From positions 424,242 through 488,241 of the forward strand of contig CAZALK010000001.1 of NCBI GenBank assembly GCA_964486045.1: a stretch of DNA of 64,000 nt. Direction: 5' to 3'. The notes below the pieces were generated by a model that had not been told where the DNA came from, did not search any database, and saw nothing but the letters and a program-made list of their open reading frames with translations. The translations under genes and the position numbers were made by a program. Shown here in pieces: positions 3,684-48,032 of the stretch; within the stretch, counting starts at the first letter, position 1; each line of letters begins with the position of its first letter. The stretch comes from an uncultured archaeon (GTDB lineage: Archaea; Asgardarchaeota; Lokiarchaeia; Sigyniarchaeales; SOKP01).

Positions 3684-3757
3684 GGGCTATTAGCGCAGGC
3701 AGGTAGCGCAGCAGGCTCTTAACCTGACGGTCGGGGGTTCGATTCCCTCATAGCCCG
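3684..3757 (+). tRNA. tRNA-Lys(CTT)
   Basis: GGGCTAT/ATAGCCC acceptor stem, CAGG-CT-CTT-AA-CCTG anticodon arm, GGTTCGATTCCC T-arm. Confidence 0.95.
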
Positions 3758-19749: not shown

Positions 19750-20668
19750 AATCGGGCACCTTTTGAGTTTTAAATTGATGGGATAAACCCTTAATATCCT
19801 TTATGGATTTGAATTTATTCTCTTTTAGATAATTAATTATTCCTTTATTAATTTCTGAAATAATTTCTGCACCATTATATAATGCGGTTCCAATTTGCAC
19901 CGCTGAAGCTCCAGCAAGAAAAAATTCCACCACATCCGCCCATGAATCTATTCCTCCACACCCTATAATGGGTATCTTTAAAACTTTATATAAATCATAA
20001 ACTTTTTTCACTGCAATTGGATGAATTGCTTTCCCAGAGAGGCCGCCACTTCCATGTGATAAAATTGGTCTTTTTGTGTTAATATCAATTTTCAATGCTG
20101 CTACTGTATTTATCGCTACTACTCCATTAGCACCTCCGTTTTCAGCCGCTATGGCTATTTCTTCAATATTTGTAACATTCGGGTTTAATTTGACAAAAAG
20201 AGGTATAGAAATCGTTTCTTTTAGAAATTTGATAAGTTCATTGGTTAAGTCTTTGTCAATGCCTATTGATGAAACTTCAGCATGTGGGCAAGAAATATTA
20301 ACTTCAATGGCATCTGCTCCAGCTTTTTCAGCCTTAGTTGCCACTTCGCAATAGATTTCGTTAGTCTCTCCAAACACACTTACTATTAGTGGAATGTTGT
20401 GATTTTTTATTTCCTTTATTTCGGAGACAAAATTTTCTATTCCAGGATTACCCAAACCAACTGCATTCATAAAAGTACCTGGATAGATCTCAATAATCGA
20501 GGGATTTTTGTATCCCTTTCTAGGTATAGGCCCTATAGATTTAGTAGTGACTGCACCTGCTCCGGAATCAATGACTCTTTTCATTGAAGAATAAGATACT
20601 CCCAGAATACCAGATGCTAAAATGATCGGAGATTTTAACTTTAAACCAGCGAGATTTATTTCAAGCAT
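19742..20668 (-). CDS. pyrD: Dihydroorotate dehydrogenase (class 1B)
   Basis: ILASG, TTKS, NISCPH, KLNPN, INT, GGLSG. Confidence 0.95.
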   Translation of the reverse strand: MLEINLAGLKLKSPIILASGILGVSYSSMKRVIDSGAGAVTTKSIGPIPRKGYKNPSIIEIYPGTFMNAVGLGNPGIENFVSEIKEIKNHNIPLIVSVFGETNEIYCEVATKAEKAGADAIEVNISCPHAEVSSIGIDKDLTNELIKFLKETISIPLFVKLNPNVTNIEEIAIAAENGGANGVVAINTVAALKIDINTKRPILSHGSGGLSGKAIHPIAVKKVYDLYKVLKIPIIGCGGIDSWADVVEFFLAGASAVQIGTALYNGAEIISEINKGIINYLKENKFKSIKDIKGLSHQFKTQKVPDFD

Positions 20669-20688: not shown

Positions 20689-20706
20689 TATAATGTTATA
20701 ATAATT
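20689..20706 (+). repeat. Candidate attL
   Basis: TATAATGTTATAATAATT, 17/18 identical to 48015..48032; AT-rich, so a chance match cannot be excluded. Confidence 0.55.
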
Positions 20707-21167
20707 CTTTAAAATGGATTATAATTATCCAAAATACCATAAAAGCACTTTCATCTTAACCAAATCTTAATTATAATTAATATATTTTATTTAATATATC
20801 TTTTGATTTATTTAATTCTATAAAATAATTTTACTTCTTTAAGTTAATTAATATAGATTAACTTCACTAATAAAAATTTAAAAAAGAATCTTTAAATTTA
20901 TAACCGCAATAAAACCTTCTATAAACATAAAAAATTTATTAAATTTCTAAAATCTTTGATCTCTTCTAATAGTTTCTTGCTTCAAAATAAATATTTAATA
21001 GAATGACTTTCAACTTGGTTCTCACACTTTTTAGTAAAAAATAAAGGAGTATTAATTCTTAAATTTATAATTATGATTTCAATAACTGAATATATATAAT
21101 ATTTATTTCTCATTAGTAAATCATTATAGTCCATAAATTTATATTGATGAATTTCTTATATAATCAT

Positions 21168-21254
21168 AGAAACGGTCAGAGGGATGTGGGTTTTACTCAC
21201 TAACCTCAATCGCTGATTAGTAGAGATAATTATTTACTTTAATTATCCTCTACT
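21168..21254 (+). ncRNA. Candidate structured RNA adjacent to the DUF3800 gene
   Basis: GC-richer island with nested stems TCAG/CTGA, GAGG/CCTC, GTGGGT/ACTCAC, followed by hairpin AGTAGAG-ATAATTA/TAATTAT-C-CTCTACT. Confidence 0.5.
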
Positions 21255-22045
21255 TACACTAATTTTTCCTGTATTATATCTAAGTAATCATTAGGATAAA
21301 TTTTCAATCCTTTTTGAAGACAATCGGGATATTTACGAAATTTATTTTTGATTAATTTGAAACAAATTTTATTTATTTCATCTAATTCCTCTGATCCTTC
21401 GCCGTAGCAAATATGTCTTAACCATCTTCTAACACAAAAAGCTACATTATCAGCTATTTGAATTCCCATGCTTTCCTTAGATTTTAGGAAATATATCTTT
21501 GGTACAATATTCCTTATTTTTATATAACTAGGATGTTCTTTTGAATAAATTGCTTTCTTTAATATATCTAATTTGTATTTATTCCATTCACCCTCATCAT
21601 CCATAAAAATAGTTAAAAAATCACATCGAGTTAATTCTTGAACAAACATTTGTAATCTTTCAATTAACATTAAATTAGCCCAAAATCTAGGATCTTTACC
21701 TTCTTCTAAATCCTTTTTAAACAGGGCTACAGAAATGATTGTAAGATTTAGACTTTCGATTATTTCAAGTCTTTTTTTATAGATCTCTAATCTTTGTTCA
21801 TAAGTTAATCGTTTAAATTCCTTTTTAATCTTATCTTTCTTTTTATTTTTTAATAACTCTTTGACATGGAATTCAACATCAGAATTTAATTTATATTTAA
21901 ACACTAATTGTTCCCTAAAATTAGACATTATAGTATCGATTTGTTGAAAATCCTCTTCTTTAATTAAAATTGCAGTCATTGAAAAAATCTTACTTTCATC
22001 ATTCATATGAGGAGATCCTGATTCATCTATGTATGCTAAGACCAT
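21254..22045 (-). CDS. DUF3800-family RNase H-fold protein
   Basis: N-terminal AYIDESG, EFH, C-terminal SKESMGIQIADNVA. Confidence 0.85.
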   Translation of the reverse strand: MVLAYIDESGSPHMNDESKIFSMTAILIKEEDFQQIDTIMSNFREQLVFKYKLNSDVEFHVKELLKNKKKDKIKKEFKRLTYEQRLEIYKKRLEIIESLNLTIISVALFKKDLEEGKDPRFWANLMLIERLQMFVQELTRCDFLTIFMDDEGEWNKYKLDILKKAIYSKEHPSYIKIRNIVPKIYFLKSKESMGIQIADNVAFCVRRWLRHICYGEGSEELDEINKICFKLIKNKFRKYPDCLQKGLKIYPNDYLDIIQEKLV

Positions 22046-22394
22046 TTTTTAGTTTTACTTTTATTTTATTAGAATATCTATCTCTTTGAATTAAATAATT
22101 AATAAAAATATAAATTTATAAATTTAAATGATTTCATTTTAAGAATTTATTAAATTGGTCTAATTTTTGTATACTCTTTTTATTTTCACATATTGTTTCC
22201 TTTAACTTTTACCTATGTTTAACCCTTTTCCATATAAAAATTTAGTAGGTAAAATTTCACACTTAAAAGGGCTAAATAAAACACCTTAATAAATAGTAGT
22301 ATAATTAGAATTTTACCAGAAGTAAAAAAATAAATTTCATTAATTTGAAATTACTAGAACATTATTTTACATCTTTATAATTTTTTTATTGGCG

Positions 22395-22837
22395 TAACAT
22401 CCTGACTTCTATCATTATGAGAATCCTTCCTATTTTTAAAATAGGATGGAAGAAGATAACACAGAGAAAGTGTCTAATCATTTCAATTTGAAATTGAAAT
22501 GAATTATTTATATGAGGATCCAATATTAGTTCAAATAAGATTGGATCTTTAACACAGAGAAAGTGTCTATACATAAAAGGCAAGTAAAAAAATTGCTTAA
22601 AAAAAAATTTAAAGCAATTTCAAATTAAATATAATTTAATTTCCACTCAAAACATTCACTCTATCTATATATTTAATACTATACCCTAAGAAAATGTAGC
22701 AGATGTGGTTGTTTATAATAAATAATTAATTAAATAAAAACAAATTAGGTTTAGGTAAAACCGTGTTTATAGTTTCTATAAACAAGGGTTCTTTGATTAC
22801 AATACTTCTTATATCTCCTCTTCCCATCTGGCAAATT
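22395..22837 (+). repeat. Modular non-coding block, copy 1 (modules A-B-B-C-D-E)
   Basis: Modules recur in inverted orientation at 26258..26648 and partly at 34158..34252. Confidence 0.8.
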
Positions 22838-23100
22838 GATCAGTAAAAATATGTTAGTTTACTGTTATTATTAATATATTTATTTTACTTGCGATTTGCT
22901 TGATTTTCTCGGAGTCTGAAGACGGGAAAATTTCCCTTCCAATTCTTTTTTTATGAGAATACTCTCTTTTCTCATGAGATTTGTGGGCATATTCTCTTTT
23001 TTAAGGGATAATCCCTTTTTTTAAACCTCTTCATACAATAAATCCCTTTATTTTAAGGGAATATCCCTTTTTCCTGCTAATTGGCTGAAACAAAATTAAT

Positions 23101-23208
23101 ATGGAAGGGGTTAGTTGGAAGGATATAGCATTAGGGTGGATACATAAACCTAAACCTAAACTTAAATCAAAACCAAAACCAAAATCAAAACCAAAAATCG
23201 AACAATAA
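23101..23208 (+). CDS. Small basic KP-repeat peptide (35 aa)
   Basis: Manual translation MEGVSWKDIALGWIHKPKPKLKSKPKPKSKPKIEQ*. Confidence 0.35.
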   Translation: MEGVSWKDIALGWIHKPKPKLKSKPKPKSKPKIEQ

Positions 23209-23304
23209 TAATGTTTCTTTTTTTATAAAAAAAAAAACATTATTATTGATATTTTTTTAAAAATTTAAAAAATATAAAAATAAATAAAAAAAAGGTAATA
23301 AAAT

Positions 23305-23499
23305 ATGGAAAATAAAAATATTAAGATAGAAATGATTTCAATAGATGCTATAACTATTGATACAACCCAAGCAAGAAGGGGGGCATGGGAAGATGATGAA
23401 AAAGATAAAACATTAATAAATTCAATTAAAGGAATTGGATTAATTTATGATATTATTGTTAGACCTACCGATAGTGAGAAATATAATGGAAATTTTTAG
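23305..23499 (+). pseudogene. Truncated ParB/Srx N-terminal fragment
   Basis: ISIDAI..QAR...LINSIKGIGLIYDIIVRP; stops before the GxRR motif. Confidence 0.65.
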
Positions 23500-23549
23500 A
23501 AAAATTGATAATTAACTAAAATATAAAATAAACAAAAGGAGATAAAAAA

Positions 23550-24851
23550 ATGATAGAAAATATTCCTTTAGATAAATTAGTTGAAAATGATTATAACCCT
23601 AGAAAACATTTTGATGATGCTGCTATACTTAGATTATCAGAAAGTATTAATGAAATCGGTTTAGTGCAAGCATTAACTGTTAGAAAGATAGATGGAGAAA
23701 AATACGAAATTATTTGTGGTATGAGGCGATTCAAAGCAATAAATTTAATTCTTTTGGATTCTATTCCATGTTTAATAGTTGAAGCAACAGATCAACAAGC
23801 GAAATTACTTGCTTTAACTGAAAATCTCGAGAGGCAGAATTTAAACCCGATTGAAGAAGCCAGAGCATTTGTTAATATTTTAGATTGGAATCTTTTAAAT
23901 TTGAAAGATACAAAATATCAAAAAGGTATGGAAAAAAAAATAAAAGAATTAGGAAAAAATATAGGAATGAGTTCTGTAACTATTTATAATAGACTTAATT
24001 TGTTATATCTTCCAAAAGAAGTACAAGTTATGGTAGAAAATTATAATAGAGAAGCAAGAACAGGAATATCACAAAGTGCAGCATTAGAAATTACTAAATT
24101 AAAAGAAATTTCTAATGAAAAACAGCGATTCACGCATATGATTGATTTAGCAAAAACTTTTGATGGTGATATCAATAATCTTAAAGCACGAATAAAAAAT
24201 ATTTTAGAAAATATTAAAAAAACAGAAGATGTAAAAGAAAAAAAACTAGAACAATTAAGAGAATTATACGAACAAGCTATAAATGAATTAATAATAGTTT
24301 TCAATGAATCTATTGAAAAATTATTCCCTGAAGATATTGGAGAATACGAAAGTAATACAGAAATTGAAACTGCTTTAGCAAATAGCTATTTAGAATTAAC
24401 CAAATCTAAAGAAATAACTATGAAAGAAGATATTGAAAAAGATGAGGATGAAGAAAATATCAAATTTGCAATTAGTTTTTATGAGATGATTCATGATTTT
24501 TTAGAAAAATTTAAAAAAGACACACAATGGGAAAAATTACGAGAAAAACAAATTTCAATAGAAGATAAAATGGATAGATTATCGATTCATCTTCAATATG
24601 TAAAAGAGTCCCCGACTGATATTTGTGTTTATTGTGGAGCGGGTATAAATATTAATAAAATGGTAAAACAATTAAAAGAATATAAAGAAAAATTGATAGA
24701 AATAAATAATCACAAAAAGATTATAGATAAAGAAAAAAATAAAATTTCGACATGTGCAAGAAATTTAAAGAAAAAAATTGAATTTTATATTTCTAAAAAG
24801 GAATTTTACGAAGATTTAAAAAAACAAATGGAGGATGAGATTAGTATATGA
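23550..24851 (+). CDS. parB: ParB/Spo0J family protein with C-terminal coiled coil and CxxC
   Basis: NPRK, GLVQALTVR, CGMRRFKA, ENLERQNLNPIEEA, HTH; ICVYCG between heptad-rich helices. Confidence 0.9.
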   Translation: MIENIPLDKLVENDYNPRKHFDDAAILRLSESINEIGLVQALTVRKIDGEKYEIICGMRRFKAINLILLDSIPCLIVEATDQQAKLLALTENLERQNLNPIEEARAFVNILDWNLLNLKDTKYQKGMEKKIKELGKNIGMSSVTIYNRLNLLYLPKEVQVMVENYNREARTGISQSAALEITKLKEISNEKQRFTHMIDLAKTFDGDINNLKARIKNILENIKKTEDVKEKKLEQLRELYEQAINELIIVFNESIEKLFPEDIGEYESNTEIETALANSYLELTKSKEITMKEDIEKDEDEENIKFAISFYEMIHDFLEKFKKDTQWEKLREKQISIEDKMDRLSIHLQYVKESPTDICVYCGAGININKMVKQLKEYKEKLIEINNHKKIIDKEKNKISTCARNLKKKIEFYISKKEFYEDLKKQMEDEISI

Positions 24852-25543
24852 GTGAAGAAACAGTAGAAAGACGGGAATTTATAACTTTAATGTTAGATTA
24901 TGATGTTGGATTAGAAAAATTATTAAATACAAATTTAGAGAACGAAGGAATTGCAATATCTTCTTTTAATACTCAAGGAAGTAGTATTACTAGTGCAGAT
25001 GAAATAATTCCTGAAGGAGTTTTTATTATTAGAAGAACTATAGGAAATAAGTTTTATATGACTCGACAAACCATAAAATCAAGTAGAATTAATACATTAG
25101 ATATTATGAAAGAGGACTTTCAGAGAATTAGAAATAGAGCTTTACAAAATGATCCTACATTTGCAGGCAGAATATATTTTAATTCTATTAGCTTAGTAGA
25201 TATTGGGGATGAAACACGAATCCCTAGAATGGTAGTATTTACTAAAAATATACATTTAAAAGAAGAAGCACTTAGACGATTATTAATAGGAAAAAGTCAA
25301 ATGCCATTAGATGTTTTAGGAATATATAATTGTATTATAGACCCTGTCACAGGTGAATGGATAAAATTAAGAAGTCCCATAACACCTTTTCCTCAAAGAA
25401 TCGAAGCTTTAGATGTTTTGCATTATACTCCAAATGTTTTTAATTCTGATCTAACAAAAGCACGAAGATGTACAGGAGTAATGAAAGATGATAGAATTTT
25501 CGTAGCAGACAGTTGTGAAGAAATACCAAAAGATGTAATATAA
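24848..25543 (+). CDS. Hypothetical protein translationally coupled to ParB
   Basis: ATGA overlap with the parB stop; 231 aa. Confidence 0.75.
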   Translation: MSEETVERREFITLMLDYDVGLEKLLNTNLENEGIAISSFNTQGSSITSADEIIPEGVFIIRRTIGNKFYMTRQTIKSSRINTLDIMKEDFQRIRNRALQNDPTFAGRIYFNSISLVDIGDETRIPRMVVFTKNIHLKEEALRRLLIGKSQMPLDVLGIYNCIIDPVTGEWIKLRSPITPFPQRIEALDVLHYTPNVFNSDLTKARRCTGVMKDDRIFVADSCEEIPKDVI

Positions 25544-25567
25544 CAATCGACTTTTTATAAAGAAATA

Positions 25568-25696
25568 TTACATTTCTTCTATTTCTGTTAAGAATTCTTC
25601 TGGTTCTTCCATTAATCCTTTTGCTATTTGACTTACAATCTTCTTTAAATTATATAATTCTTCTTCTATTTTATCTAATCGTTCTTCAATGGTTAT
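25568..25696 (-). CDS. Small coiled-coil ORF or gene remnant
   Basis: ITIEERLDKIEEELYNLKKIVSQIAKGLMEEPEEFLTEIEEM*, ATA start after AGGT. Confidence 0.3.
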   Translation of the reverse strand: MTIEERLDKIEEELYNLKKIVSQIAKGLMEEPEEFLTEIEEM

Positions 25697-26257
25697 TTTT
25701 AAAACCTTTTAATTTATGTAATTTTACATTATATAAATATTCTTTAAAAATTTTTTATAATTACTTAACTCTTACACCACATTTAAGAGTTTCTCAATCT
25801 AAAATAAATATTTAAAGTAATCCATTTCTCTACTATTTTTATGAAAAAAAAATTGGAAATAAAGGGCACCTTTATTTCAACAAACATTGCAATTGCAATG
25901 TTTTTAGGGATTCCCTGAAAACCACCAATTCCCTATAAACTTTTGGACCAAAAGTTTCAACAAACAAAAAAATTTTTTGTTTCGACAAACACTAATAATT
26001 AGTGTTTTAACAAACTATAGAATTTCTCAATAATTTTAAGATATAAAGTTGAATCTATAGAGTTTCTCAATAGTTTCAAAAATTCAAATTAAAACTATTA
26101 AATATTTAATAGTTATTTTGAAAAAAAATTAGGATGGAGTGAGGGTATATCGAAATTTAACCCCAAAAATATATTCGCTGTTATTGGACATTTAAAATTG
26201 GATAGTAAAGATACTGATGCACAGAGGAAAATTATATCTGATTTAAAAAGGGTTGTA

Positions 26258-26648
26258 GAGATATAAGAAGTATTGTAATCAAAGAACCCTTGTTTGCAGA
26301 AACTGCATACAAGGTTTTACCCAAACCTAATTTGTTTTTATTAGATTAAATATTTAATATAAACTACCACATTTACTACATTAATTTGCCAGATGGGAAT
26401 AAGATCTTAAAATCCATGGTTTCTTTAGTACTAAAGAAATCCAGGTTTCAGAAAACCTTGGTAACTTTAGTACTAAAGTTACTAAGGTTTTGGAACATAT
26501 ATGAAGACAATTAATTTAGACACTTTCTCTTCTATTCCTATGAAGATACCATCCTTAAAACTTCTCTATATTGTCTTTTAAAATCCTTAGTAATTTTACT
26601 AGTAAAAAGACCAATATTTTATAAATTATGATGGAAGTCAGGATGTTA
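26258..26648 (-). repeat. Modular non-coding block, copy 2 (inverted; A-B-E-C-D)
   Basis: Reverse complement matches modules of 22395..22837. Confidence 0.8.
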
Positions 26649-27162
26649 TGGAATTAAAAAAATTAATTTCGTACTTTTTAAAGAGGAAAAGAATGGATTA
26701 AAATTTTTAATCCATCCTTTTTTTTTAAGAAAAAAACGCCTTTAAAAAGTTTAAAGGCGTTCTTTGTTTTTGTGTAAATTTCGTTTTAAATTTTTTCTTA
26801 AACGAAACTTTCATCATTTCAACCATTTAATTTCAAATTAATTGGTGTTGACAGTAAAAAATATGCTATAAATTTAGGAATTGATTTTGCGAATTATGTA
26901 AATTTAAATAGTTATTTGAGATGTATATAAATTTATATACAACTTTTTTTAAAAAATATAACACCCATGGGTGGTATTTTCCATCCTAAAAATAAATAAT
27001 TAAATATCTTCCCTATTTGTTATTACTTTTATCTATATTTTATCCAATAAGATATAAAATCCTTTTCACACATTTTTTTATATATAAGCATTATTCTACT
27101 TCACCTATTATATTATAGACTGAGAGGATTATTAGTTAGGTGTGTGAAGTGTGGGATTTTTG

Positions 27163-27217
27163 GAAACTATAATAAAACTATAAGGAAACTATATAGAAAC
27201 TATATTAAAACTATAAT
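27163..27217 (+). repeat. Five tandem 11-bp iteron-like repeats (candidate origin)
   Basis: gaaactataat/aaaactataag/gaaactatata/gaaactatatt/aaaactataat, followed by an AT-rich tract next to the helicase gene. Confidence 0.65.
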
Positions 27218-27496
27218 TAATATTTCACTATTTCGCTTATTATCTTCTTATTTTAATTTAGATGATCAATAAAAAATTAATTTTATTTAAAAATTTATAT
27301 ATGATCATCAAAATAAAAAAATAATATATAATACATAAAAAATATATACATATTTATTTTTAGATCATATATATTTATATTCTCAAAAATAGTTTTAAAA
27401 ATTGATAGGTAAAATTAATTATATTAATATCTTATATATGTGAGATATTAAAAGAAGGATTATAGTTTTAATATAGTAGGTTAGAGGTGGTTGTTA

Positions 27497-29782
27497 TTAA
27501 TATTTAAAATCTCCTTCCATAGCTTTCTTTTCTTCTTCGGTTAAATCTATACTTATACCAGAATCATCACTTGATAAAAATTCTCTTTTTATAAATATTA
27601 CTGCTCTTGATTTATCTATAGTTCTATAAGTATGTTCTATCCAATGTTTATCTTTTGCTGGTAATGCTTCTCTTAACTCTCCTGCTAACCCTTGAAGACT
27701 TCTTTTCCCTTCCCCATTTAATTTTAATAAAATATTAAAATCTCCTTTATTCTCTTGCGTAAAATAATAATCTCCTTTTTTATTCATTATAAGTTTATGA
27801 TTAATGTATCTTTTATCTTTTATTCTTGAAACTCTAGTAGTTTTTGTTTCTTCTTCTTCTTTTCCTTCCTTTTTCTTTATAATAATTTCCTTTTCACTAT
27901 ATATGATTTCTTCTTCATAATCTCTCGCTCTTCTACAATAATAATAAAATATTTGTAATATTGTTTTAGTTAAATTTTCTCTTGAACTCATTAATTTATT
28001 TGTTATATTATCTTTTTCTAAAATAATATCAAATGCCTTTTCAAATAGTTTAATACCAAACATAATAATCTGAAATATTTGTATTAATCGAGGATAACTA
28101 CCTAATAATTTTATTTCATCTTTATATTCCTCTTTAATAGATTCAAGTTGTTTTTCAACATCATTATTAGTCCAATCTTTAATTATATCATAAATTAAGC
28201 TAAAAAGTTTTATTTTTTCTAAAATTCTTTCTGCTTCTAACCATTTTGGATCAAGTGATAATATATCTGATGTATTAAAGAATAAATTAATAGATTTAGA
28301 ATTATAAGCAAGGTCAACAAATTCTTTAATAATTTCATTTGTATCTATACCAAGTGGTGCAGACATAAGACTTGATTGAGCTATATGAACTCCGTCTTTC
28401 TTCATCCTGTCTCTATAAAAATCATTAGTTGCCATTTCTTTTAAAATAGATATAGTATACTCATTTACTTTTTTAACTTCTTCAAAATGAGCGGGAAAAG
28501 TAGAACTAGTTATAATACCTGTTATTCGAGACGGTGAACTAAAATCACCAGAAGAAAATGGTTTATCATATATTTTATAGAATAATGTAGTAAAGAAGTC
28601 AAGAATTGCTGATTTACCTGTTTCTCTTTCACCAATTAAATTAAGTTGAGGAAATATTTTTAATATTTTTATAAAAGCCTTCCTAAAGGGTGCAGCCATT
28701 GACCAACCAATAATGATTGCCAGATTTATTGGTTTCATTTTTGTTAATTTAATAAATTTTTTCATCCATTTTCTTATTTTTAATTTTTGAGGCTTTGTAT
28801 ATTTTGCATATATTTTTTTAGCATTTTTATATGCCATAATTTGATAATGATTTGTTAATAGTATAGCCCATCCTTTTTCTTCTTCTGTTATAGGTAAAAC
28901 ACACCCATTATCAAATCCTATTGCAAGTTTAGCTGTTCTTGGTTCAAAAATGTCATCGGCACTATTAATTACCTTTTTCATTATATCTAATCCAAATCCT
29001 CCTTTATATATATCATAATTTAAAATAGAAAGTATCTCTTTCTTGCTTTGTGTATAATGAAAACGATTATTATATTTGAATGTAAATAACATTTTATCAT
29101 TTTTTTCATCATAAACTTTATACAACATTTCTAATTTTCCATTTAGAATTTCTGTTATACTTTCACTGAGTATACCACCAATTTCAATTTTCTTTAAATG
29201 ATATATTTTTTTATCAGTTATTATAATTGAATTTCCATCATAAGGTATAGTATCTATTTCAATTCCTTCTAATGTTTCTACTGATGCTGATGATGATGGT
29301 ATTATTGCTGTTGTTCTTGGTGTTTTTAGTGTTTTTTTTATTTCTTTTTCTTTATATTTTTCTCTCTTTCTTATTCTTATCCAATCTGCTTCAAAAGTAT
29401 CACCCACATATTCAAAATAATCATCTTTTAAATCTATAACTCTTTGGATAATAAAGGTTTTAACTGTTTTTTTAAAAGATGGATTAGCCTTAAGAGTTTC
29501 TGTTATAGCTGTATCAATATCATCAAATGATTCTATTGCATCTATAAAAGATTTTATTTTTTTAATATCTACTTTTTCATCGGGATCAATTTTAAACTTT
29601 GTACTACCAATTGTTAATTTCCTTGGTTCATCAGATGCAAGCTTAACATTTTTCTTCTTAGGAGCAGGTGTAGATAGTCTTTCTTCAACTGTTTTACCTT
29701 TAGAAGATTCTCGTCTACTTTCTAAAAATTCTTTGTCTTCAGCTGTTAAACCTTTATCTTCAGTCTTTTTTTCCTCTATCAT
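27497..29782 (-). CDS. DUF927/Cch-like replicative helicase (P-loop ATPase)
   Basis: IIGWSMAAPF..FPQLNLIGERETGKS (Walker A), PAHFEEV (Walker B), R..MKKDG. Confidence 0.7.
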   Translation of the reverse strand: MIEEKKTEDKGLTAEDKEFLESRRESSKGKTVEERLSTPAPKKKNVKLASDEPRKLTIGSTKFKIDPDEKVDIKKIKSFIDAIESFDDIDTAITETLKANPSFKKTVKTFIIQRVIDLKDDYFEYVGDTFEADWIRIRKREKYKEKEIKKTLKTPRTTAIIPSSSASVETLEGIEIDTIPYDGNSIIITDKKIYHLKKIEIGGILSESITEILNGKLEMLYKVYDEKNDKMLFTFKYNNRFHYTQSKKEILSILNYDIYKGGFGLDIMKKVINSADDIFEPRTAKLAIGFDNGCVLPITEEEKGWAILLTNHYQIMAYKNAKKIYAKYTKPQKLKIRKWMKKFIKLTKMKPINLAIIIGWSMAAPFRKAFIKILKIFPQLNLIGERETGKSAILDFFTTLFYKIYDKPFSSGDFSSPSRITGIITSSTFPAHFEEVKKVNEYTISILKEMATNDFYRDRMKKDGVHIAQSSLMSAPLGIDTNEIIKEFVDLAYNSKSINLFFNTSDILSLDPKWLEAERILEKIKLFSLIYDIIKDWTNNDVEKQLESIKEEYKDEIKLLGSYPRLIQIFQIIMFGIKLFEKAFDIILEKDNITNKLMSSRENLTKTILQIFYYYCRRARDYEEEIIYSEKEIIIKKKEGKEEEETKTTRVSRIKDKRYINHKLIMNKKGDYYFTQENKGDFNILLKLNGEGKRSLQGLAGELREALPAKDKHWIEHTYRTIDKSRAVIFIKREFLSSDDSGISIDLTEEEKKAMEGDFKY

Positions 29783-29912
29783 TCTTTTTCTCTTCCTCCA
29801 ACTTTAATACATAATACTCTACAGCCCTAAGTATAAATTGGGTCATAGTCTCTAATTCATTTTTAAGTATTTCAGCCCTATCTAATATATTTTTACTAAA
29901 AAGTATATTCAT
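29760..29912 (-). CDS. Small RHH-like protein
   Basis: Manual translation MNILFSKNILDRAEILKNELETMTQFILRAVEYYVLKLEEEK...; GAGGT upstream. Confidence 0.55.
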   Translation of the reverse strand: MNILFSKNILDRAEILKNELETMTQFILRAVEYYVLKLEEEKKNDRGKKD

Positions 29913-30021
29913 TCTAATAATACCTCTTCTTCTCTATTTTATTTTCTTTAAATTTATCCCTAAAATGATTAAAAATTTTTTTAAAACAATCATAAGAACC
30001 AGAATACCTATAATCTCTTAA

Positions 30022-30432
30022 TTAGTTCATTAACTCTTGAAAAGTTCCCATATAAACTGATTCATTTATCATTATGATAAATACATTTTCATCATTTTCT
30101 CTTTTAAAACCCAAAAATTGAAATTCTCCCTCAAATATTTGATGGCTATGTCCTCTTTTCTGTGTAATTCTATAAATTCCATCTCTTCTAATTTCTATAT
30201 AATGTGGATAAAAATCTATAATTTCTAATATTTTATTTTTACATTTTTTATTATTTAATTTAGTCTGAAGATAAAATTGCTCTTTATAAGATATCAGTTT
30301 AATCATTAAACTATCTATTCCATCACATAGAACATTTCTGGAAAATATAGGTATAGAATTAGTATATTCTCCTAATTTATCAAATCCATTTATCTTTATT
30401 GATAAATTGTATTTTCCTATTTTATTTATCAT
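30022..30432 (-). CDS. Hypothetical protein
   Basis: ORF coupled by ATGA overlap to 30429..30788. Confidence 0.55.
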   Translation of the reverse strand: MINKIGKYNLSIKINGFDKLGEYTNSIPIFSRNVLCDGIDSLMIKLISYKEQFYLQTKLNNKKCKNKILEIIDFYPHYIEIRRDGIYRITQKRGHSHQIFEGEFQFLGFKRENDENVFIIMINESVYMGTFQELMN

Positions 30433-30788
30433 TTTTTCACCATATCACACAATTTATTTTCAATAAATTTGCTTAAGAGTTTCTGAATAATATCGATGCT
30501 TTTAAAAACACTTTTAATTCCAAGGCAGACCCATCTCCGTATAAAGATAACAAAAGAAGCAGTATTAGATCCTTCCTCTTGGATAATGTTTAAGCTTATA
30601 ATTAAATCAAATTTTAATTTTCTCTTAAAACATCTCTTTTTCATATATAATGAATAGTTAGATTGGATTTCCTTTTTAAATTGCTTATAGGTTTTTAAGA
30701 TATTGGTTTGATTACAAATTTCGATATTATTATAAACTTCTACTAATTGTATATCCAGAATAAATTTACTCTCCCTATTTGGAGGCAT
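30429..30788 (-). CDS. Hypothetical protein
   Basis: 119-aa ORF in a minus-strand operon. Confidence 0.55.
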   Translation of the reverse strand: MPPNRESKFILDIQLVEVYNNIEICNQTNILKTYKQFKKEIQSNYSLYMKKRCFKRKLKFDLIISLNIIQEEGSNTASFVIFIRRWVCLGIKSVFKSIDIIQKLLSKFIENKLCDMVKK

Positions 30789-30790
30789 TT

Positions 30791-30949
30791 TTATTCCTCA
30801 ATTTTTTTAGAAAATATTTTATGTCGTATAAAAGTAGAGAGAGGTACATCTCCAGCCCTTTTTTTTAATTCTTTCTTTTCATCATTGGTAAGATATACAC
30901 AACAGTAAGCATTACGTTTTTCACTTTCTAATTTTCTTGTGTTTGCCAT
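30791..30949 (-). CDS. MobC-like ribbon-helix-helix protein
   Basis: Manual translation MANTRKLESEKRNAYCCVYLTNDEKKELKKRAGDVPLSTFIRHKIFSKKIEE*. Confidence 0.65.
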   Translation of the reverse strand: MANTRKLESEKRNAYCCVYLTNDEKKELKKRAGDVPLSTFIRHKIFSKKIEE

Positions 30950-31218
30950 ATTTTAAAAATACCTATTTTTATAGTTTTTATATATATCAAATGTAATTTA
31001 ACTTAATATTTAAATGGAATTATTTTCTCTGTCAATTTATTGATTCCACTTATTTAATTAATTATTTTTTATTATGGGACTATTAGATGATTATTAAATA
31101 ATTATTAGTTCGTTATTAAGTGATTATTAAGTGAAGAAAAGATATAGAAATGATTAGGAGTTAATTTGTCTATTAAAATTAAAAAGATATGAGGATGAAG
31201 CAGCGAAACAAAAAAAAT

Positions 31219-31422
31219 TTAGATTTTATAATTCATTAACTTATTTATTATACTTATTAGATCTCTAAAAGTGTTTTTATTATCCTCTGTTAAATTATGT
31301 TGCTTTAGTTGATTCTCATAAAATTTTATAGCCGATTGTGCAACTGGCACAAAATAATTTTTATCATAGTTAGGTTGCTTCCAGGTACTCATATCCACAG
31401 GTATTTTTTCAATCTGTTCCAT
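31219..31422 (-). CDS. Hypothetical protein
   Basis: Tightly packed operon ORF. Confidence 0.55.
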   Translation of the reverse strand: MEQIEKIPVDMSTWKQPNYDKNYFVPVAQSAIKFYENQLKQHNLTEDNKNTFRDLISIINKLMNYKI

Positions 31423-31425
31423 TTT

Positions 31426-41773: not shown

Positions 41774-41976
41774 TAATCCCCCGCCTCTTTCATTGTTCCT
41801 TTTGGAACTAGAACAGGATCACTTGGATCTTTATTAAATAATCTCATAATTTTTCGTCGCTTTTTATTTGTACCATGCTCTAATGCCTTTGTATGAAGTT
41901 CCATTGTTTGTTTATATAAATCATAGAGCTTATCTTTCTTTTTATTTATACTTGTAGTTCTATCAATCACCATCAC
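41773..41976 (-). CDS. Hypothetical protein
   Basis: Coupled ORF with GGAG upstream. Confidence 0.55.
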   Translation of the reverse strand: MMVIDRTTSINKKKDKLYDLYKQTMELHTKALEHGTNKKRRKIMRLFNKDPSDPVLVPKGTMKEAGD

Positions 41977-41995
41977 TATCTCCTCAAAATAAATT

Positions 41996-42349
41996 TTAAT
42001 TATTTATGATTTCTCTAAAATCTTCTAAACTCATTCTTTTTCCATTTATTATTTTATAATTTTTATTACTATACTTAGATATGACATTAGCCTTCATAAG
42101 AGAATTAGTAAAACGATTAAATTTACCTATCAATGTTCTTACTGCTTTTTGATATATTATTTGCTTATGTAGTGCATTCCTAAGATAAGATATACCATAA
42201 TTTTTTACTAAATATTCTCTTGCAATCGTTTTATACTTAAAGTATGTATGTTCACTAAGATAATTATATAATAATAAAGTTATGTCATCAAAACTTAATT
42301 TACTAATATTCTCCTCTAATTTTTTAATTAATAATTTATTCTCCATCAT
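41996..42349 (-). CDS. Hypothetical protein (wHTH-like)
   Basis: Resembles the N-terminal part of 42346..42942 (FN..NSL..AN.I.K.S). Confidence 0.6.
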   Translation of the reverse strand: MMENKLLIKKLEENISKLSFDDITLLLYNYLSEHTYFKYKTIAREYLVKNYGISYLRNALHKQIIYQKAVRTLIGKFNRFTNSLMKANVISKYSNKNYKIINGKRMSLEDFREIINN

Positions 42350-42942
42350 AATAAATCAAAATCATTTTTTGAATTTATTAATTGTAATCTTTCAACTATA
42401 ACCTTAACTTTTTCACCTTTTTTCAAATTATATTTTCTTATTAACTCTTTTGTAATATAAATATAGGTATAGCCCCAACTTTTACCTTCACCGGCACATA
42501 GTATAGTTAGTTCGAATTGTATCGCACCATTGCCAAATTTATCCTTTTCTTTTATTTTACCATTACCATTAGCTAAATATTCCTTCACTATAGCACTTTT
42601 TATGATATCTATATTTATATTAACTCCTCTAATCTTCTTATAAAATGTGCTACTATCTTTTCTGATCATATTTGCGTTCACTAATGAATTAATTAGCTTA
42701 TTAAACACATTTGAAATATTAGCGAACAATCGTAAGCAGAATTTATCATTTTTTTCGTAAAGTATGAAATGTTTTTCAGAAAAATACCCTTTCGCAATCA
42801 TTATTACTTTAAAAAAATTAATCTTATTAATATAATCGGCAAAATAAACCATTAAATCAAATATATTCAGATTTTTATAAATCTTCTCATACCTTTCTAT
42901 TGTTATCAATAATCTTTTCTTCCTATTATTTAATTTTATCAA
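42346..42942 (-). CDS. wHTH-like plus C-terminal AbrB-like domain
   Basis: YIYITKELIRKYNLKKGEKVKVIVE. Confidence 0.6.
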   Translation of the reverse strand: MIKLNNRKKRLLITIERYEKIYKNLNIFDLMVYFADYINKINFFKVIMIAKGYFSEKHFILYEKNDKFCLRLFANISNVFNKLINSLVNANMIRKDSSTFYKKIRGVNINIDIIKSAIVKEYLANGNGKIKEKDKFGNGAIQFELTILCAGEGKSWGYTYIYITKELIRKYNLKKGEKVKVIVERLQLINSKNDFDLL

Positions 42943-43101
42943 TTTTCGTCATAATAAAATTTTTTTAATGTTTTGAATTTTTTATATAAATATTTTAATT
43001 TTTCCTGATCCGCAATTTTTTTTAATTTTTTTAATTTTAAATCAAGATGTTCCAAATCTTTTTTTGCCTTTAATATTTTTAAATCTTTTTTCGTCATTAT
43101 T

Positions 43102-46032
43102 TTATTTTTTTCTTTTTAATTTGCTTCTTAATTTTCTGTTAATCTTACTCCTATCATTTATTGTATTTTTGCCCTGAGTTACCTTCCACATTAACGCATT
43201 CTGATTAAATCTGACTTTTTTAAATTGCCATCTATTATTTAAAAAATTAAAAATAATATATATACCAACACAAATTGTAATAAACCAAAACCACGTCTCT
43301 AAATTAACAGTAATAGGCTTTGGAATCTCTGGAACTTCCGTTTTGTAAAAACCAAATTCAATAACTTTGTAATCATCTGTTAATTTTACATTTTTTTCTT
43401 TAATTAGATCTCCATTATTTTCATAAGCTGAAATTGTATAATTGACATCTTTTATCATTCTCATCTGAATTCCAGCGGTCGATCCTACGATAAACGAAAT
43501 ATTCGAACTACCTCTTTCTATTTCAATTTTAATCGTTCTATTAAAATTATTTACAACAATCAACGTATAAACTTCAACTTGTATATCATATTCATAAATT
43601 CCTGAAGTATTAATATTGCTATCGTACAATGTATATCCAAAATAGTCCTTAACTACTAAATTTATTATCATATTTTCAATTCTGTTAAATCCAAAATCAG
43701 TACGATTATTGTCTATATAGAATTTAAATGTATTTTCATATATTCCTAATCCATCATAATTATAAATTCCAAAAAATACATTTTTAGGATATTCTGGTGT
43801 TATGGTTGGTGTTCCAAACGATTCTATATGACTATTATCTGTCAGATTTATAATTCTCGAATCATATAACGTTGCATTTGTGAAGTAAATAGTTATATTA
43901 TATTCTACGTTTGGAAGGAATCTGTAAGTTAACCCAAATTGTTTTGGAAGTATCTGTTCCATCCACACACCCGAACCTACTTGAGTAATGTTTACGATAA
44001 TATCTTCATAAGTAAATTGATTTAAAATAATTAAAGAATAAATTTCTATAAAAATATTATATTCAGAATAAGCAGAAGCATCAATAGTGTCATTTGCTAA
44101 TGTATTATTAAAGAAATCCAAGATTAAAAGATTTGCTGTTTCAGATTGTATTATATTTCGACCAAAATCTTTTCTTACACCATTTATATAAAATCTCACT
44201 AAATCATGGTCTATTCCTAATCCATCATAAGTAAATAATCCAAAATAAATTTGGTAATATGTAGTGTTTATAGATATTATTTTATGTGTTGTAAATTCAA
44301 ATTCTAAACTTCTTGGATAATTATCCTCATGATTTGTATAATTTAAAATATAATTCCCTGTAGCAATGCTAAATTCAATAATTTCAATAGGGAAAATATT
44401 GCCTGATTTTTCAATACCAGAATTATTGTTTTTTAATATATAATCAGCATATTCACTTGCCTCATTTTTTATTTTAAGAGAATATACATTTAGAGTAATA
44501 TCTATAAAAGTCTCTTCATAACTATCATAATCTTTTATTAAAATATCAAAAGAGTCATAGATTTTAAATTCTATTAATGTATCATCATCTACATATAAAA
44601 TATGACTTGATAACCGTTCATTAGTGTAGGTAAAATTATCTAAAGTGTAATTAATATATGTAGTAAATAAATTAAAATCTAAATATTCATTATTAGAATC
44701 ATAATACGTTAAATAAACAATTTCAGAATCAATTCTTTCATAAATTAAAGTCTGTAATGTAGATGAAGTTGTTATATATTTAGTTTCCATTAATTCATTT
44801 CTTTCATAGATTTCTACTGTATAGTTATGTGGATAACCAATATCTAATTGTTTTCTTCCATTTGGTTCTACATAATAAACTATAGTTTCAGCATAACCTC
44901 TTTTAATTACTATTGAATCCACAATTAAATTCTTAGTATCATCAAATATTCCAGTAAATTCTAATTGGTCAACCGATATATTGGAGCCTATTGTAAAGGT
45001 TTTAGTTCTTGTGGAGAAATCTCCATTACCCTGACTTGAAAGAATATAACTTGCTTGTTGAATACTATTATTTCTTAGATTTAAATCAATTCTATTTGTT
45101 GAGCTTGTATTAAATTTAACTTCAATTTTATCTCCTTCCTGTAAAGTTAAATTAAGATTATTTAGACTTCTTAAAGTTAAGGTTTCTGTTTCATTAGTTT
45201 GCATATAAATCAGATTATTTCCTTGGTAGTTTTTTGAAATATGCCAAGCAGATATATTTCCTTCAAAATTTACGATAATTTGAGAAGCTTCAATTGTAAA
45301 AGTAAAATCTCTAAGATGTTTTGTAGTTATTTCAAGTGTGTTAATATCAGCATCAGTTAAATTTAAATCTGACCATCCTCCTGCGTATTTCCACACAAAA
45401 CTAGTAGAAGAAAACCAAGAATATATAGGATTTGTTGTTCCTGGAAGATTACCCGATACCTCTAATTGATTTGGTCCTGCATAAATTGTTTTATGATAAA
45501 TTGGATATATTATCTGAATAACCTTTCCTGAATCATAAGCAGATAAATTTATATTATCAAATGAATATATATCTGTTTGACCAGTTGTACTACTTATTAC
45601 TCGATTTCCATCAAATCCTACAGTACTTGGATAAATTACACCATCATCTAACTCATCGGCATGAACAGCAGGTGCAACAGGAATATCCCATTCATCAGAT
45701 ATATCTCCATCAGGTTCTATAACTATTGTTTCTTCAGTATATTCAGCGACACCAGAATAATTCATAAAAAGATAAGTAGGTGGTGCACCAATAAAATACC
45801 TTTCACTAACTCCATACAAACTCCAATTATCTGAACCTGCATCAAATGTTTCATTATAAAGATAATTATAACCAGCTGTTTCATTTATAAAATCCCATCG
45901 TGTAGATAAATCAGATTCACTAATGATTTCTATATTAGGAGTTTGTGCAAAGCCGTTACTAATAAAACTTGAAAAAGATAATATAAAAATAAATAAACAT
46001 AAACTTGAGCTTATTAACTTCTTATTTTTCAT
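43102..46032 (-). CDS. Large secreted, C-terminally anchored surface protein (adhesin/spike-like)
   Basis: Signal peptide, many N-x-S/T sequons, ~3 internal repeats (FG..YDGLGI...FYI...R.DFG.N), single C-terminal TM and basic tail. Confidence 0.8.
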   Translation of the reverse strand: MKNKKLISSSLCLFIFILSFSSFISNGFAQTPNIEIISESDLSTRWDFINETAGYNYLYNETFDAGSDNWSLYGVSERYFIGAPPTYLFMNYSGVAEYTEETIVIEPDGDISDEWDIPVAPAVHADELDDGVIYPSTVGFDGNRVISSTTGQTDIYSFDNINLSAYDSGKVIQIIYPIYHKTIYAGPNQLEVSGNLPGTTNPIYSWFSSTSFVWKYAGGWSDLNLTDADINTLEITTKHLRDFTFTIEASQIIVNFEGNISAWHISKNYQGNNLIYMQTNETETLTLRSLNNLNLTLQEGDKIEVKFNTSSTNRIDLNLRNNSIQQASYILSSQGNGDFSTRTKTFTIGSNISVDQLEFTGIFDDTKNLIVDSIVIKRGYAETIVYYVEPNGRKQLDIGYPHNYTVEIYERNELMETKYITTSSTLQTLIYERIDSEIVYLTYYDSNNEYLDFNLFTTYINYTLDNFTYTNERLSSHILYVDDDTLIEFKIYDSFDILIKDYDSYEETFIDITLNVYSLKIKNEASEYADYILKNNNSGIEKSGNIFPIEIIEFSIATGNYILNYTNHEDNYPRSLEFEFTTHKIISINTTYYQIYFGLFTYDGLGIDHDLVRFYINGVRKDFGRNIIQSETANLLILDFFNNTLANDTIDASAYSEYNIFIEIYSLIILNQFTYEDIIVNITQVGSGVWMEQILPKQFGLTYRFLPNVEYNITIYFTNATLYDSRIINLTDNSHIESFGTPTITPEYPKNVFFGIYNYDGLGIYENTFKFYIDNNRTDFGFNRIENMIINLVVKDYFGYTLYDSNINTSGIYEYDIQVEVYTLIVVNNFNRTIKIEIERGSSNISFIVGSTAGIQMRMIKDVNYTISAYENNGDLIKEKNVKLTDDYKVIEFGFYKTEVPEIPKPITVNLETWFWFITICVGIYIIFNFLNNRWQFKKVRFNQNALMWKVTQGKNTINDRSKINRKLRSKLKRKK

Positions 46033-46064
46033 TTTAATTATACCTCTCTTTTATATTTCTCATT

Positions 46065-46280
46065 TTAATATGATTTAATTTTTTTAATCACATAATATAT
46101 CAAAAAACTTACAATTACACTTACTAATAAAATTTCAAACCATATCTCATAAAAAAGATTGAAATGGGCTCCAACCCATCCACCATTAAATAAAGCATAA
46201 ATCAACATAGGTAAGAAAAGAACCCAACCACCTATTCCTAAAAACCATGCTATAATATCAATCATTTTTATTTCGGTCAT
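46065..46280 (-). CDS. Small two-helix hydrophobic protein
   Basis: 71 aa, two TM segments, basic C-terminus. Confidence 0.65.
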   Translation of the reverse strand: MTEIKMIDIIAWFLGIGGWVLFLPMLIYALFNGGWVGAHFNLFYEIWFEILLVSVIVSFLIYYVIKKIKSY

Positions 46281-46443
46281 TTTTATCCCCTTTTATAATT
46301 TCTTCAAATTTATCAGGATTTTTCATATAATAATTAATTAAATTTCTCATAATCTTTGAACGAGATATCCTAAATTCCCATTTCTTATCTTCTATAAATT
46401 TAATCTGTTCACTATATAAATGAAAGGATGTTGATACTGCCAT
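46258..46443 (-). CDS. RHH/CopG-like regulator
   Basis: STSFHLYSEQIKFIE...ISRSKIMRNLINYY. Confidence 0.7.
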   Translation of the reverse strand: MAVSTSFHLYSEQIKFIEDKKWEFRISRSKIMRNLINYYMKNPDKFEEIIKGDKNDRNKND

Positions 46444-46654
46444 CGTATTTATTATTTTTATAATTAATTATTTTCCTATTATTTAATTGATCGTTTTTAT
46501 AATATTTAAATGGAATGCCCTAATTCATAGAATCCATATTTTACATGAATTAGATTAAAGATATAATAAAATTAAAGAATGTTATACAAGTATACCTAAA
46601 ATAAATATAAAATATTAATACAAAAACAAGGTTTAAACAACGATCCAAAAAAAA

Positions 46655-47953
46655 TTATTTTTTAATATTATCAAATTCTGCTTCTATTGCTTCCTTATAA
46701 GCTTCAGGAGGAATTCTCATATTTTTTTTAATCCATTTCAATTCCTTATCAAACTGTACTCTAATATCTCTCAATTCACTTAGAAAATTATTTTGTAATT
46801 TATGTAATTCTTCAGATATCCTCTCATTTCTATCTTTTATTTCTTTATTTTCTTGTCTTAGCTCCTGAACTTCATATGGTTGAATTATAGATTCAACACC
46901 CATCTGTTCTATATCTTCTTCATTAATAATATTTCCACATTTCCAACAGAATAGATTTTCTTGACGATTTTCTGCTTCACAAATCCTACATTGTTTTGCT
47001 TCTTTTAGTTCAGGTTTAGAAATTTCAACAACATTATTAGTCATGATATCAATTATATCTTTATCAACTAAATGGAAATATATTTTTGCCATAGTAGAAT
47101 CAGCAGACCAACCAGCAAACTTTCTAATTTGAGCTTCATTTAACTTAGTTCTTGCTAATTCAGTTAATCTTGAATGCCTAAATAGATGAGGATTAAGTTT
47201 CCTTCCTTTCCATTGTTTTGGATATTTTTTAATCAATTTTTTTAATATAAAAATCAAGTAGTTATTCACAGTAGTATTATTTTTAAAATCAAACAGCTTA
47301 TTTTCTGGTTCAAAATCATTAATTCCAGTATATTCTTTTATGTATGATGTGGCTTCAATTACAGGAACATCCCTTCCATAAGTTTTTGATTCTGATATTT
47401 TTAAAATAGTATATCCACGATTAAACCTAATATCCTTCTCTCTAATGTTAAGAGCTTCATCTATTCTTAATGCTCCTTCATATAAAATCATAAATAATGT
47501 TTTATATTTAAGATTACTGTATTTTAAAATTTGCTCTAAATCTTCTCTTGTTATTAAATCAATTTTGCTAAGTTTTTTGGTTTTTCCATTCATTTTACTT
47601 GGAAATAAATTAAATAAATCATTTCTTTCAGAATATTTTAGATATTTTTTAATTCTATTAACATGCATTTTTTGTGTGCCATTTGAAAGGTTATTCCACC
47701 AATCAGAATCAAGAAAATCTTTAATATCCTGTTCAGTAAGCAAACCTATATTATTATGTTTTAAATTAAAGTCTTTATTTTTTGCTCTCCAGCTTTCATT
47801 TCTCTGCTTATCAGTTTCAAATAATTTACTAATAGATATTAAATGGTTTAAAATTGTTCCATCAGTAGAACCTTTTAACTCTTTGTAGTAATAGTTTTCT
47901 ATATTATTATCCTTAGATTTTAATCTTTCCAAATATTTATTATAACTATCCAT
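46655..47953 (-). CDS. Tyrosine recombinase/integrase with C-terminal Zn ribbon and coiled coil
   Basis: GALRIDEAL (R), SKT (K), HLFRHSR (HxxR), AGW, KIYFHL (Y); CRIC..CWKC. Confidence 0.95.
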   Translation of the reverse strand: MDSYNKYLERLKSKDNNIENYYYKELKGSTDGTILNHLISISKLFETDKQRNESWRAKNKDFNLKHNNIGLLTEQDIKDFLDSDWWNNLSNGTQKMHVNRIKKYLKYSERNDLFNLFPSKMNGKTKKLSKIDLITREDLEQILKYSNLKYKTLFMILYEGALRIDEALNIREKDIRFNRGYTILKISESKTYGRDVPVIEATSYIKEYTGINDFEPENKLFDFKNNTTVNNYLIFILKKLIKKYPKQWKGRKLNPHLFRHSRLTELARTKLNEAQIRKFAGWSADSTMAKIYFHLVDKDIIDIMTNNVVEISKPELKEAKQCRICEAENRQENLFCWKCGNIINEEDIEQMGVESIIQPYEVQELRQENKEIKDRNERISEELHKLQNNFLSELRDIRVQFDKELKWIKKNMRIPPEAYKEAIEAEFDNIKK

Positions 47954-48014
47954 AATCGATCATATAAAAAAAATTTAAATATTTAAATGTAATTGATAAT
48001 TATAATGATTTTTA

Positions 48015-48032
48015 TATAATTTTATAATAATT
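48015..48032 (+). repeat. Candidate attR
   Basis: TATAATTTTATAATAATT, 62 bp upstream of the integrase start; 17/18 match to 20689..20706. Confidence 0.55.

Follow-up and report, generated by a model that had tools for sequence, protein, structure and literature searches.

A 27-kb integrative element in the pyrD-nop5 promoter of a Lokiarchaeia genome and the two-way occupancy of its target by related elements

The window analysed here is a 64,000-nucleotide stretch from the genome of an uncultured archaeon of the Lokiarchaeia (contig CAZALK010000001.1, positions 424,242 to 488,241), and all coordinates of the element refer to it. It contains a real 27-kb integrative element (20689-48032), which occupies the divergent promoter between the host genes pyrD and nop5. 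This agrees with the original prediction, since the terminal repeats lie where they had been placed and the site is empty in relatives. The element is of a recognisable general kind, and its family was not found described. The unusual part of this family is the symmetric attachment site of the element (attP) together with the repeated occupancy of promoter sites in both directions. The features that had been emphasised before, the non-tRNA target and ParB, are ordinary or accessory.

Element ends, integrase and target site

The direct repeat at the two ends is identical at 17 of 18 positions, a match that arose in one of 300 shuffles of both 100-bp flanks. Its single mismatch is the first spacer base of the left attachment site (attL), a G that agrees with the attP of the related contig L123. 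The GC content is 25.0% inside the element, compared with 31.0% and 29.1% in the flanks. Excision is predicted to leave 76 bp between the start codons of pyrD and nop5, close to the approximately 75 bp expected beforehand, and to rebuild the empty site of the relative G013. The only tRNA of the window, a tRNA-Lys(CTT) at 3684-3757, lies 17 kb from the element and is unconnected with it.

The 12-bp inverted pair just inside the ends was found at the predicted coordinates as well. Its 12-mer has 19 copies in the genome and is therefore weak evidence by itself. Its weight comes from comparison: related elements repeat the distal motif in about a dozen junctions, with an unchanged spacing to the core, and it is absent from the empty sites scanned. 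At both mapped target sites, the layout is in every case a 9-bp spacer that is followed by a 15-bp arm and finally by TTATAATT. Because it is missing from the empty sites scanned, this motif, or the 12-bp inverted repeat as a whole, behaves like a candidate arm-type binding site. The left site is quasi-palindromic, as had been claimed, but the symmetry axis assigned to it was wrong. Comparison of the junctions replaced it with a 9-bp spacer between inverted arms, which shifts the axis by about 4.5 bp to the right.

A joined junction lies upstream of the integrase on contig L123, a non-chromosomal relative in which no host genes were recognised. The inverted arms of this junction are perfect over 23 bp and enclose a 9-bp spacer that holds a perfect 8-bp palindrome. 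This junction shares 30 consecutive identical bases with the predicted attP of the window element, including the mismatch G. This supports the attP model and the shifted axis, and it provides an actual junction in which the inverted pair flanks the core, as foreseen for a circular attP. It also suggests that the G entered with the element and was sorted to attL in the manner of a mismatched overlap. In L123 (5331-5455), the attP inverted repeat reaches about 130 bp at 80% identity. Two further observations concern junctions at other places. The integrase-end junction of L122 (95-135), at an unmapped site, has its distal motif one base nearer to the core than all others. More distant family members, L137 of genome G061 (with ends upstream of its integrase and 13.9 kb downstream) and L136 of G067 (12.6 kb), terminate in inverted repeats that are perfect over 14-16 bp. 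Their spacers are not identical, and a direct repeat was not found.

The catalytic residues of the tyrosine integrase (R163, K190, H256, R259, W282 and Y292) are all intact, and its start codon lies about 60 bp from the right attachment site (attR). An invariant four-cysteine zinc ribbon (residues 322-339) near the C-terminus is followed by a coiled-coil-like tail. It belongs to a tight clade of about 20 proteins with 65-83% identity, while the closest named integrases, those of the pleolipoviruses ThalV2 and GacPV1, share 28-29% identity. The integrase with its C-terminal zinc ribbon defines a family of Promethearchaeota that targets the pyrD-nop5 promoter and a second, similar one. It would bind the core half-sites around the 9-bp spacer and may read the distal TTATAATT, a motif confined to the arms of the element, as an arm-type site. 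Binding of this motif through the zinc ribbon is put forward as a hypothesis. An element that exploits the host Xer system (XerA/dif) was rejected based on the integrase score of 65.6 against a XerA cut-off of 220, and a separate match to a Xer-sized recombinase lies on contig C18 of the genome.

The adjacency of pyrD and nop5 in relatives, which had been proposed as a check, was surveyed in 43 genomes of the same genus, with relatives labelled as Promethearchaeota. Both genes are adjacent and less than 80 bp apart in 37 of them, and the quasi-palindrome is strongly conserved there. This integrase occupies the site in four of the 43 genomes (the window, G008, G014 and G016), and G060 retains a remnant of about 750 bp. 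Judging from its position, the target probably corresponds to the back-to-back TATA-like boxes of the divergent promoter, and the integrated repeat would rebuild a TATA-like sequence for both genes. The claim that a non-tRNA target is unusual does not hold. In a survey of thaumarchaeal cryptic integrated elements, 15 of 68 lie in intergenic targets (PMC6563490), the Lokiarchaeum provirus Fyl1 is inserted between protein genes (bioRxiv 2026.02.13.705702), and Yucahu-i of Atabeyarchaeia uses an AT-rich 11-bp attachment site (PMC11529989). A scar lineage was also observed at pyrD in G002, G016 and G014 (L064, L063 and L109), to which G002 was assigned along with G016. Its integrase stands without its arm, is frameshifted in G016 and lost in G002, and a very large surface-protein gene takes the place of nop5 downstream.

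The mapped pair of host and element attachment sites and the intact integrase are of practical interest for marine-sediment Lokiarchaeia, a lineage short of genetic tools. The target is highly conserved, and we infer that both host promoters are left usable.

Occupancy in both orientations

The integrase adjoins nop5 in the window and in L128, and pyrD in G008, G014, G016, L119, L121, L124 and L129. Complete relatives measure 15.8 kb (G008) and about 11 kb (L121). A second target is a near copy of the first site in reverse; it is empty in G019 and G060 and is occupied by sister integrases in opposite orientations (L126 versus L131-133). By parsimony on a partly unresolved integrase tree, three orientation switches are needed. 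For a standard site-specific integrase, two orientations at one site are not expected because the overlap fixes the orientation. The two-way occupancy puts this textbook rule to the test, the alternatives being a flip of attP cores by way of the inverted repeats that they contain and a mismatch-tolerant archaeal enzyme. Nothing relevant on two-way integration in archaea was found in the literature, which is no proof of novelty. Flipping looks slow rather than phase-variable because identical elements from different samples share their orientation (L119/L120, L124/L125 and L131-133). Fast phase-variable flipping was rejected for this reason, although only three such sets are available.

An assembly artefact behind the opposite orientations, or a decayed island instead of an element, is very improbable. 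The AT-rich inverted ends, the metagenomic origin of the assemblies and the several contigs that end at the pyrD-nop5 site could all give rise to such an error. Nevertheless, each orientation was recovered from independent assemblies (the window and L128; L126 versus L131-133), identical elements of separate samples agree, and the integrase and helicase are intact.

The details of the junctions bear on how the orientation switches. The spacer matches the host throughout at the mapped sites, and the distance from core to motif is equal on both sides in both orientations. In the window element, the arm at the integrase end agrees at 15/15 positions with the L121 arm away from the integrase, and the best match of the opposite arm (13/15) is the arm at the integrase end of L129. 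These comparisons are suggestive of arms that follow the host side and not the element end. A hybrid arm in L128 and a host-side base in L131 imply that the flip does not always break at one point, a variation that fits recombination between the inverted repeats as well as template switching. Arms made alike and spacers inverted by template switching between short inverted repeats have been described before (PMC8604942). We lean towards a switch by a flip of the element body against the core via the terminal inverted repeats. The attP would be an inverted repeat with arms of roughly 25 bp around a short loop, and because of this structure the element body may occasionally flip against the core, by template switching or arm recombination, either as a circle or while integrated. 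On its next insertion, the element would then face the other way, with the spacer still matching the host.

Alternatively, the integrase could itself tolerate both orientations, as IntDOT or the Tn916 enzyme would, and this is a close though less probable rival. Little or one-sided overlap identity would be needed, and a symmetric attP would integrate either way. Later cycles of excision and re-integration would erase the reversed spacer, and the arms would converge by copying and promoter selection. The inverted ends and non-identical spacers of G061 (4/7 in direct comparison) and G067 fit such an enzyme, as do the attP-derived G in attL opposed to the host T in attR and the perfect palindrome in the L123 spacer. 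For IntDOT, an inverted overlap leads to the opposite orientation and a symmetric overlap to both (PMC2817482). However, a reversed spacer is present at no junction of either mapped site, and the arms of the window element did not move with the element ends. Reversal on a 6- or 8-bp palindromic overlap was rejected because it predicts a shift of the motif by one base per side, which is unseen at the mapped sites and appears only in L122, at its unmapped site. The flip and the tolerant enzyme are not mutually exclusive. A broader reading is rather doubtful, namely that Asgard tyrosine integrases with a C-terminal zinc ribbon read symmetric arm sites, insert site-specifically into divergent promoters in either orientation by mismatch tolerance and are carried by unnamed enveloped viruses with no recognised capsid, the window element being a reduced member.

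Several points weigh against repeated switching by a flip. A single clade of the window and L128 integrases is not rejected (p-AU 0.275, approximately unbiased test), and every sequence is a metagenome assembly, that of the L123 junction included. The similarity of arms by host side has a permutation p of 0.06 with non-independent sequences, and selection on promoter elements could likewise make the arms track the host side. The relatives at about 50% identity (G061 and G067) have inverted ends with non-identical spacers. Such spacers and the sorting of the G both point to a mismatch-tolerant and possibly self-reversing enzyme.

Among described systems, CTnDOT/IntDOT and Tn916 resemble the window element in their tyrosine recombinase, AT-rich sites, signs of mismatch tolerance and an orientation set by the overlap (PMC2817482). 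In contrast, the window element is promoter-specific, has a near-perfect direct repeat and carries no conjugation genes. IntDOT and the Tn916 integrase have an N-terminal arm-binding domain, whereas the window integrase has the C-terminal zinc ribbon instead.

Gene content and affinities

Features of the element and its flanks (window coordinates; aa, amino acids; TM, transmembrane segments; HTH, helix-turn-helix; pLDDT, predicted local distance difference test)
Feature	Position	Strand	Basis or remark
Host pyrD	19742..20668	-	left flank
attL direct repeat	20689..20706	+	9-bp core spacer 20695-20703
Left terminal arm with distal motif	20704..20729	+	15-bp arm 20704-20718; 12-bp inverted repeat 20718-20729
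DUF3800 protein, cargo	21254..22045	-	Pfam 9.5e-17
Outer 41-bp inverted pair	22378-22418 / 26625-26665	.	flanks ParB cassette
125-bp inverted repeat (89%)	22693..22817, paired with 26258-26382	.	flanks ParB cassette
ParB N-terminal stub, 64 aa	23305..23499	+	Pfam 1.1e-6
ParB/Noc-like protein	23550..24851	+	
231-aa protein travelling with ParB	24848..25543	+	
parS-like candidates	26420..26482	.	inferred; two perfect 20-22-bp palindromes with common centre
Candidate replication origin	27191..27480	.	non-coding, AT-rich, ~290-bp imperfect palindrome just downstream of helicase
Cch/SaPIbov1-Rep-type replicative helicase, 761 aa	27497..29782	-	fold pLDDT 84
HNH/homing-endonuclease-like protein with HTH	32121..32753	-	weak matches
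Membrane protein with C-terminal zinc ribbon	33040..33708	-	
Topo VI-A-like TOPRIM protein, read as Topo mini-A	34854..35966	-	PHROG 6247 'DNA topoisomerase' 2.5e-38
PCNA/sliding-clamp-like protein, lead only	36448..37350	-	ESM Atlas feature match 0.93 to cluster with 22% PCNA_N
P-loop ATPase with HTH, putative PD-(D/E)xK nuclease tail	39139..40671	-	motif inspection; Zot/pI-like by weak feature match 0.81
4-TM membrane protein	40984..41496	-	conserved in related elements
Surface/adhesin-like protein, 976 aa	43102..46032	-	signal peptide, C-terminal membrane anchor; largest open reading frame
71-aa protein	46065..46280	-	two membrane helices
Tyrosine integrase	46655..47953	-	PF00589 2.2e-18
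Right terminal arm with distal motif	47995..48020	-	arm 48006-48020; 12-bp inverted repeat 47995-48006
attR direct repeat	48015..48032	+	9-bp core spacer 48021-48029, same as host spacer
Host nop5	48071..49273	+	right flank

The element is probably, though by no means securely, a 'cryptic integrated element' of Promethearchaeota, plasmid-like in character and inserted by its own tyrosine integrase. An intact tyrosine recombinase stands beside an attachment site, a direct repeat flanks the element and relatives have an empty site, while an attP-type junction is seen in the relative L123 only. The cryptic integrated elements of Thaumarchaeota (PMC6563490) share with it the tyrosine integrase, short direct repeats, common intergenic targets, variable replication modules and the lack of a virion or conjugation hallmark. 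Two-way occupancy and symmetric terminal arms were not found in the parts of that survey that were consulted, and the Cch-type helicase of the window element is a further difference. Compared by description, Yucahu-i with related elements (PMC11529989) and Fyl1 (bioRxiv 2026.02.13.705702) likewise have Asgard hosts, and ParB-like genes occur in some of this set. The short AT-rich attachment site of Yucahu-i and the non-tRNA site of Fyl1 between protein genes resemble the situation here. In contrast to the window element, excision was shown for both, and Fyl1 has a double jelly-roll capsid.

Other types of elements were considered and rejected. No HK97 or double jelly-roll capsid, portal or terminase match was found among the element proteins, which speaks against a tailed or jelly-roll provirus, and no VirB4/type IV secretion system or relaxase was found in Pfam and NCBIfam scans, which speaks against an integrative conjugative element. 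The lack of such capsids, a terminase, VirB4 and a relaxase had been noted before from the sequence. Six of 24 homologues of the ATPase weakly match a terminase PHROG. A pleolipovirus was sought through its VP4-like fusogen and VP3 matrix protein, and in a single-sequence phmmer test none of ThalV2 gp03-gp07 matched an element protein at E<=0.05. An Aloposon, which would have giant Otus/Ephialtes genes, a tRNA target and a MinD/ParA ATPase, was excluded since the largest open reading frame has 976 aa and there is no tRNA at the ends. IMG/VR yielded no relatives with the integrase, ATPase and adhesin queries or the WyrdV1 protospacer, and Rfam gave no match. The proposed CRISPR check was equally negative: the 22 spacers of the one array detected in the host do not match the element.

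A provirus or satellite of an unrecognised enveloped virus, spindle-shaped or pleomorphic-like, released with the pI-like ATPase and built from the 71-aa or 4-TM protein, seems unlikely but has several points in its favour. L173/L175 and a second element of G008 combine adhesin-like, 4-TM and ATPase genes, and the adhesin-like and ATPase genes are also found together in G007 and G143. The 976-aa adhesin-like protein is homologous to a 1364-aa protein of L173 (7.6e-129). L173/L175 has the fullest block, to which it adds basic proteins and further membrane proteins, and it resembles an enveloped virus in which no capsid is recognised. The gene order of the window element resembles the adhesin-to-ATPase block of wyrdviruses, Topo mini-A and PCNA are known from Asgard viruses and elements (bioRxiv 2021.07.29.453957), and the closest named integrases stem from the pleolipoviruses mentioned above. 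On the other hand, no capsid or fusogen match was obtained in Pfam, PHROGs or the ThalV2 proteins, and the IMG/VR queries retrieved no relatives. The window element lacks several genes common to L173 and L123 as well as the basic proteins of L175, and the complete relatives G008 and L121 have no adhesin. The 71-aa protein as a spindle-virus capsid candidate has no Pfam or PHROGs match and is backed by no search.

Wyrdviruses, again compared by description (bioRxiv 2021.07.29.453957), share with the window element an adhesin-like gene, small membrane genes and a pI-like ATPase in similar order, and Topo mini-A. The window element differs in being integrated, in that no His1-like capsid protein was detected and in its incomplete block. 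A wyrdvirus would have an adhesin, a five-gene block and a pI-like ATPase; the window element has adhesin-like, 4-TM and ATPase genes, and other block genes of L173 are missing. I read the genes present as a reduced and exchanged enveloped-virus-like module, which may be the remnant of a fuller one, and the element is unlikely to form particles by itself. Overall, these findings suggest that Asgard elements with Cch-type helicases and a membrane/ATPase module form a group not described so far. L173/L175 (ENA ERZ23499174 scaffold_397, 40.5 kb) was also found to encode a Prim-Pol helicase, several Lys/Arg-rich proteins and membrane-anchored proteins, a CAAX protease, the adhesin-like and 4-TM proteins and the pI-like ATPase, and similar blocks were observed in G007:C112 and G143. 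In the G008 element (L061 2331-4988 and 13891-15819), defence-like cargo replaces the ParB cassette and the adhesin and comprises TIR/AbiTii-like, restriction-endonuclease-like and AriA/OLD-type ATPase proteins.

The replicative helicase shares its fold with SCCmec Cch and SaPIbov1 Rep (Foldseek 5.5e-12 to 8TCH and 2.1e-11 to 5DGK) at only 10-12% identity. It differs from them in its archaeal host, and no primase gene was identified in the element. The helicase has no primase domain of its own, whereas homologues elsewhere are often fused to Prim-Pol or DnaG-type primases. Nothing relevant on an Asgard Cch helicase was found in the literature, which again does not prove novelty. PDB sequence searches with the helicase, the ATPase and the clamp were uninformative, and the PCNA-like protein reached a pLDDT of 31 in a single-sequence fold. 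The Topo VI-A-like protein and, as a lead, the PCNA-like protein extend the putative replication genes beyond the helicase. The palindrome downstream of the helicase is regarded as a candidate origin because it is conserved at the same position in the G008 element (69% identity over 287 bp). The element had been called self-replicating, which is plausible given the Cch-type helicase and this conserved candidate origin. Excision would yield a circle replicating by the helicase from the adjacent origin.

The element was also described as ParB-carrying. ParB is present as accessory cargo with no accompanying ParA, and the two other complete family members do not have it. A ParABS-partitioned replicon was therefore rejected: ParB and candidate palindromes were found, and no ParA was among the open reading frames scanned. 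The two-gene cassette of ParB and the 231-aa protein also occurs in G066 and G118. In the window it lies within 22378-26665, the only multi-gene block on the opposite strand. This block may be able to invert or to move separately. A related module of about 80 bp occurs again at 34238-34334.

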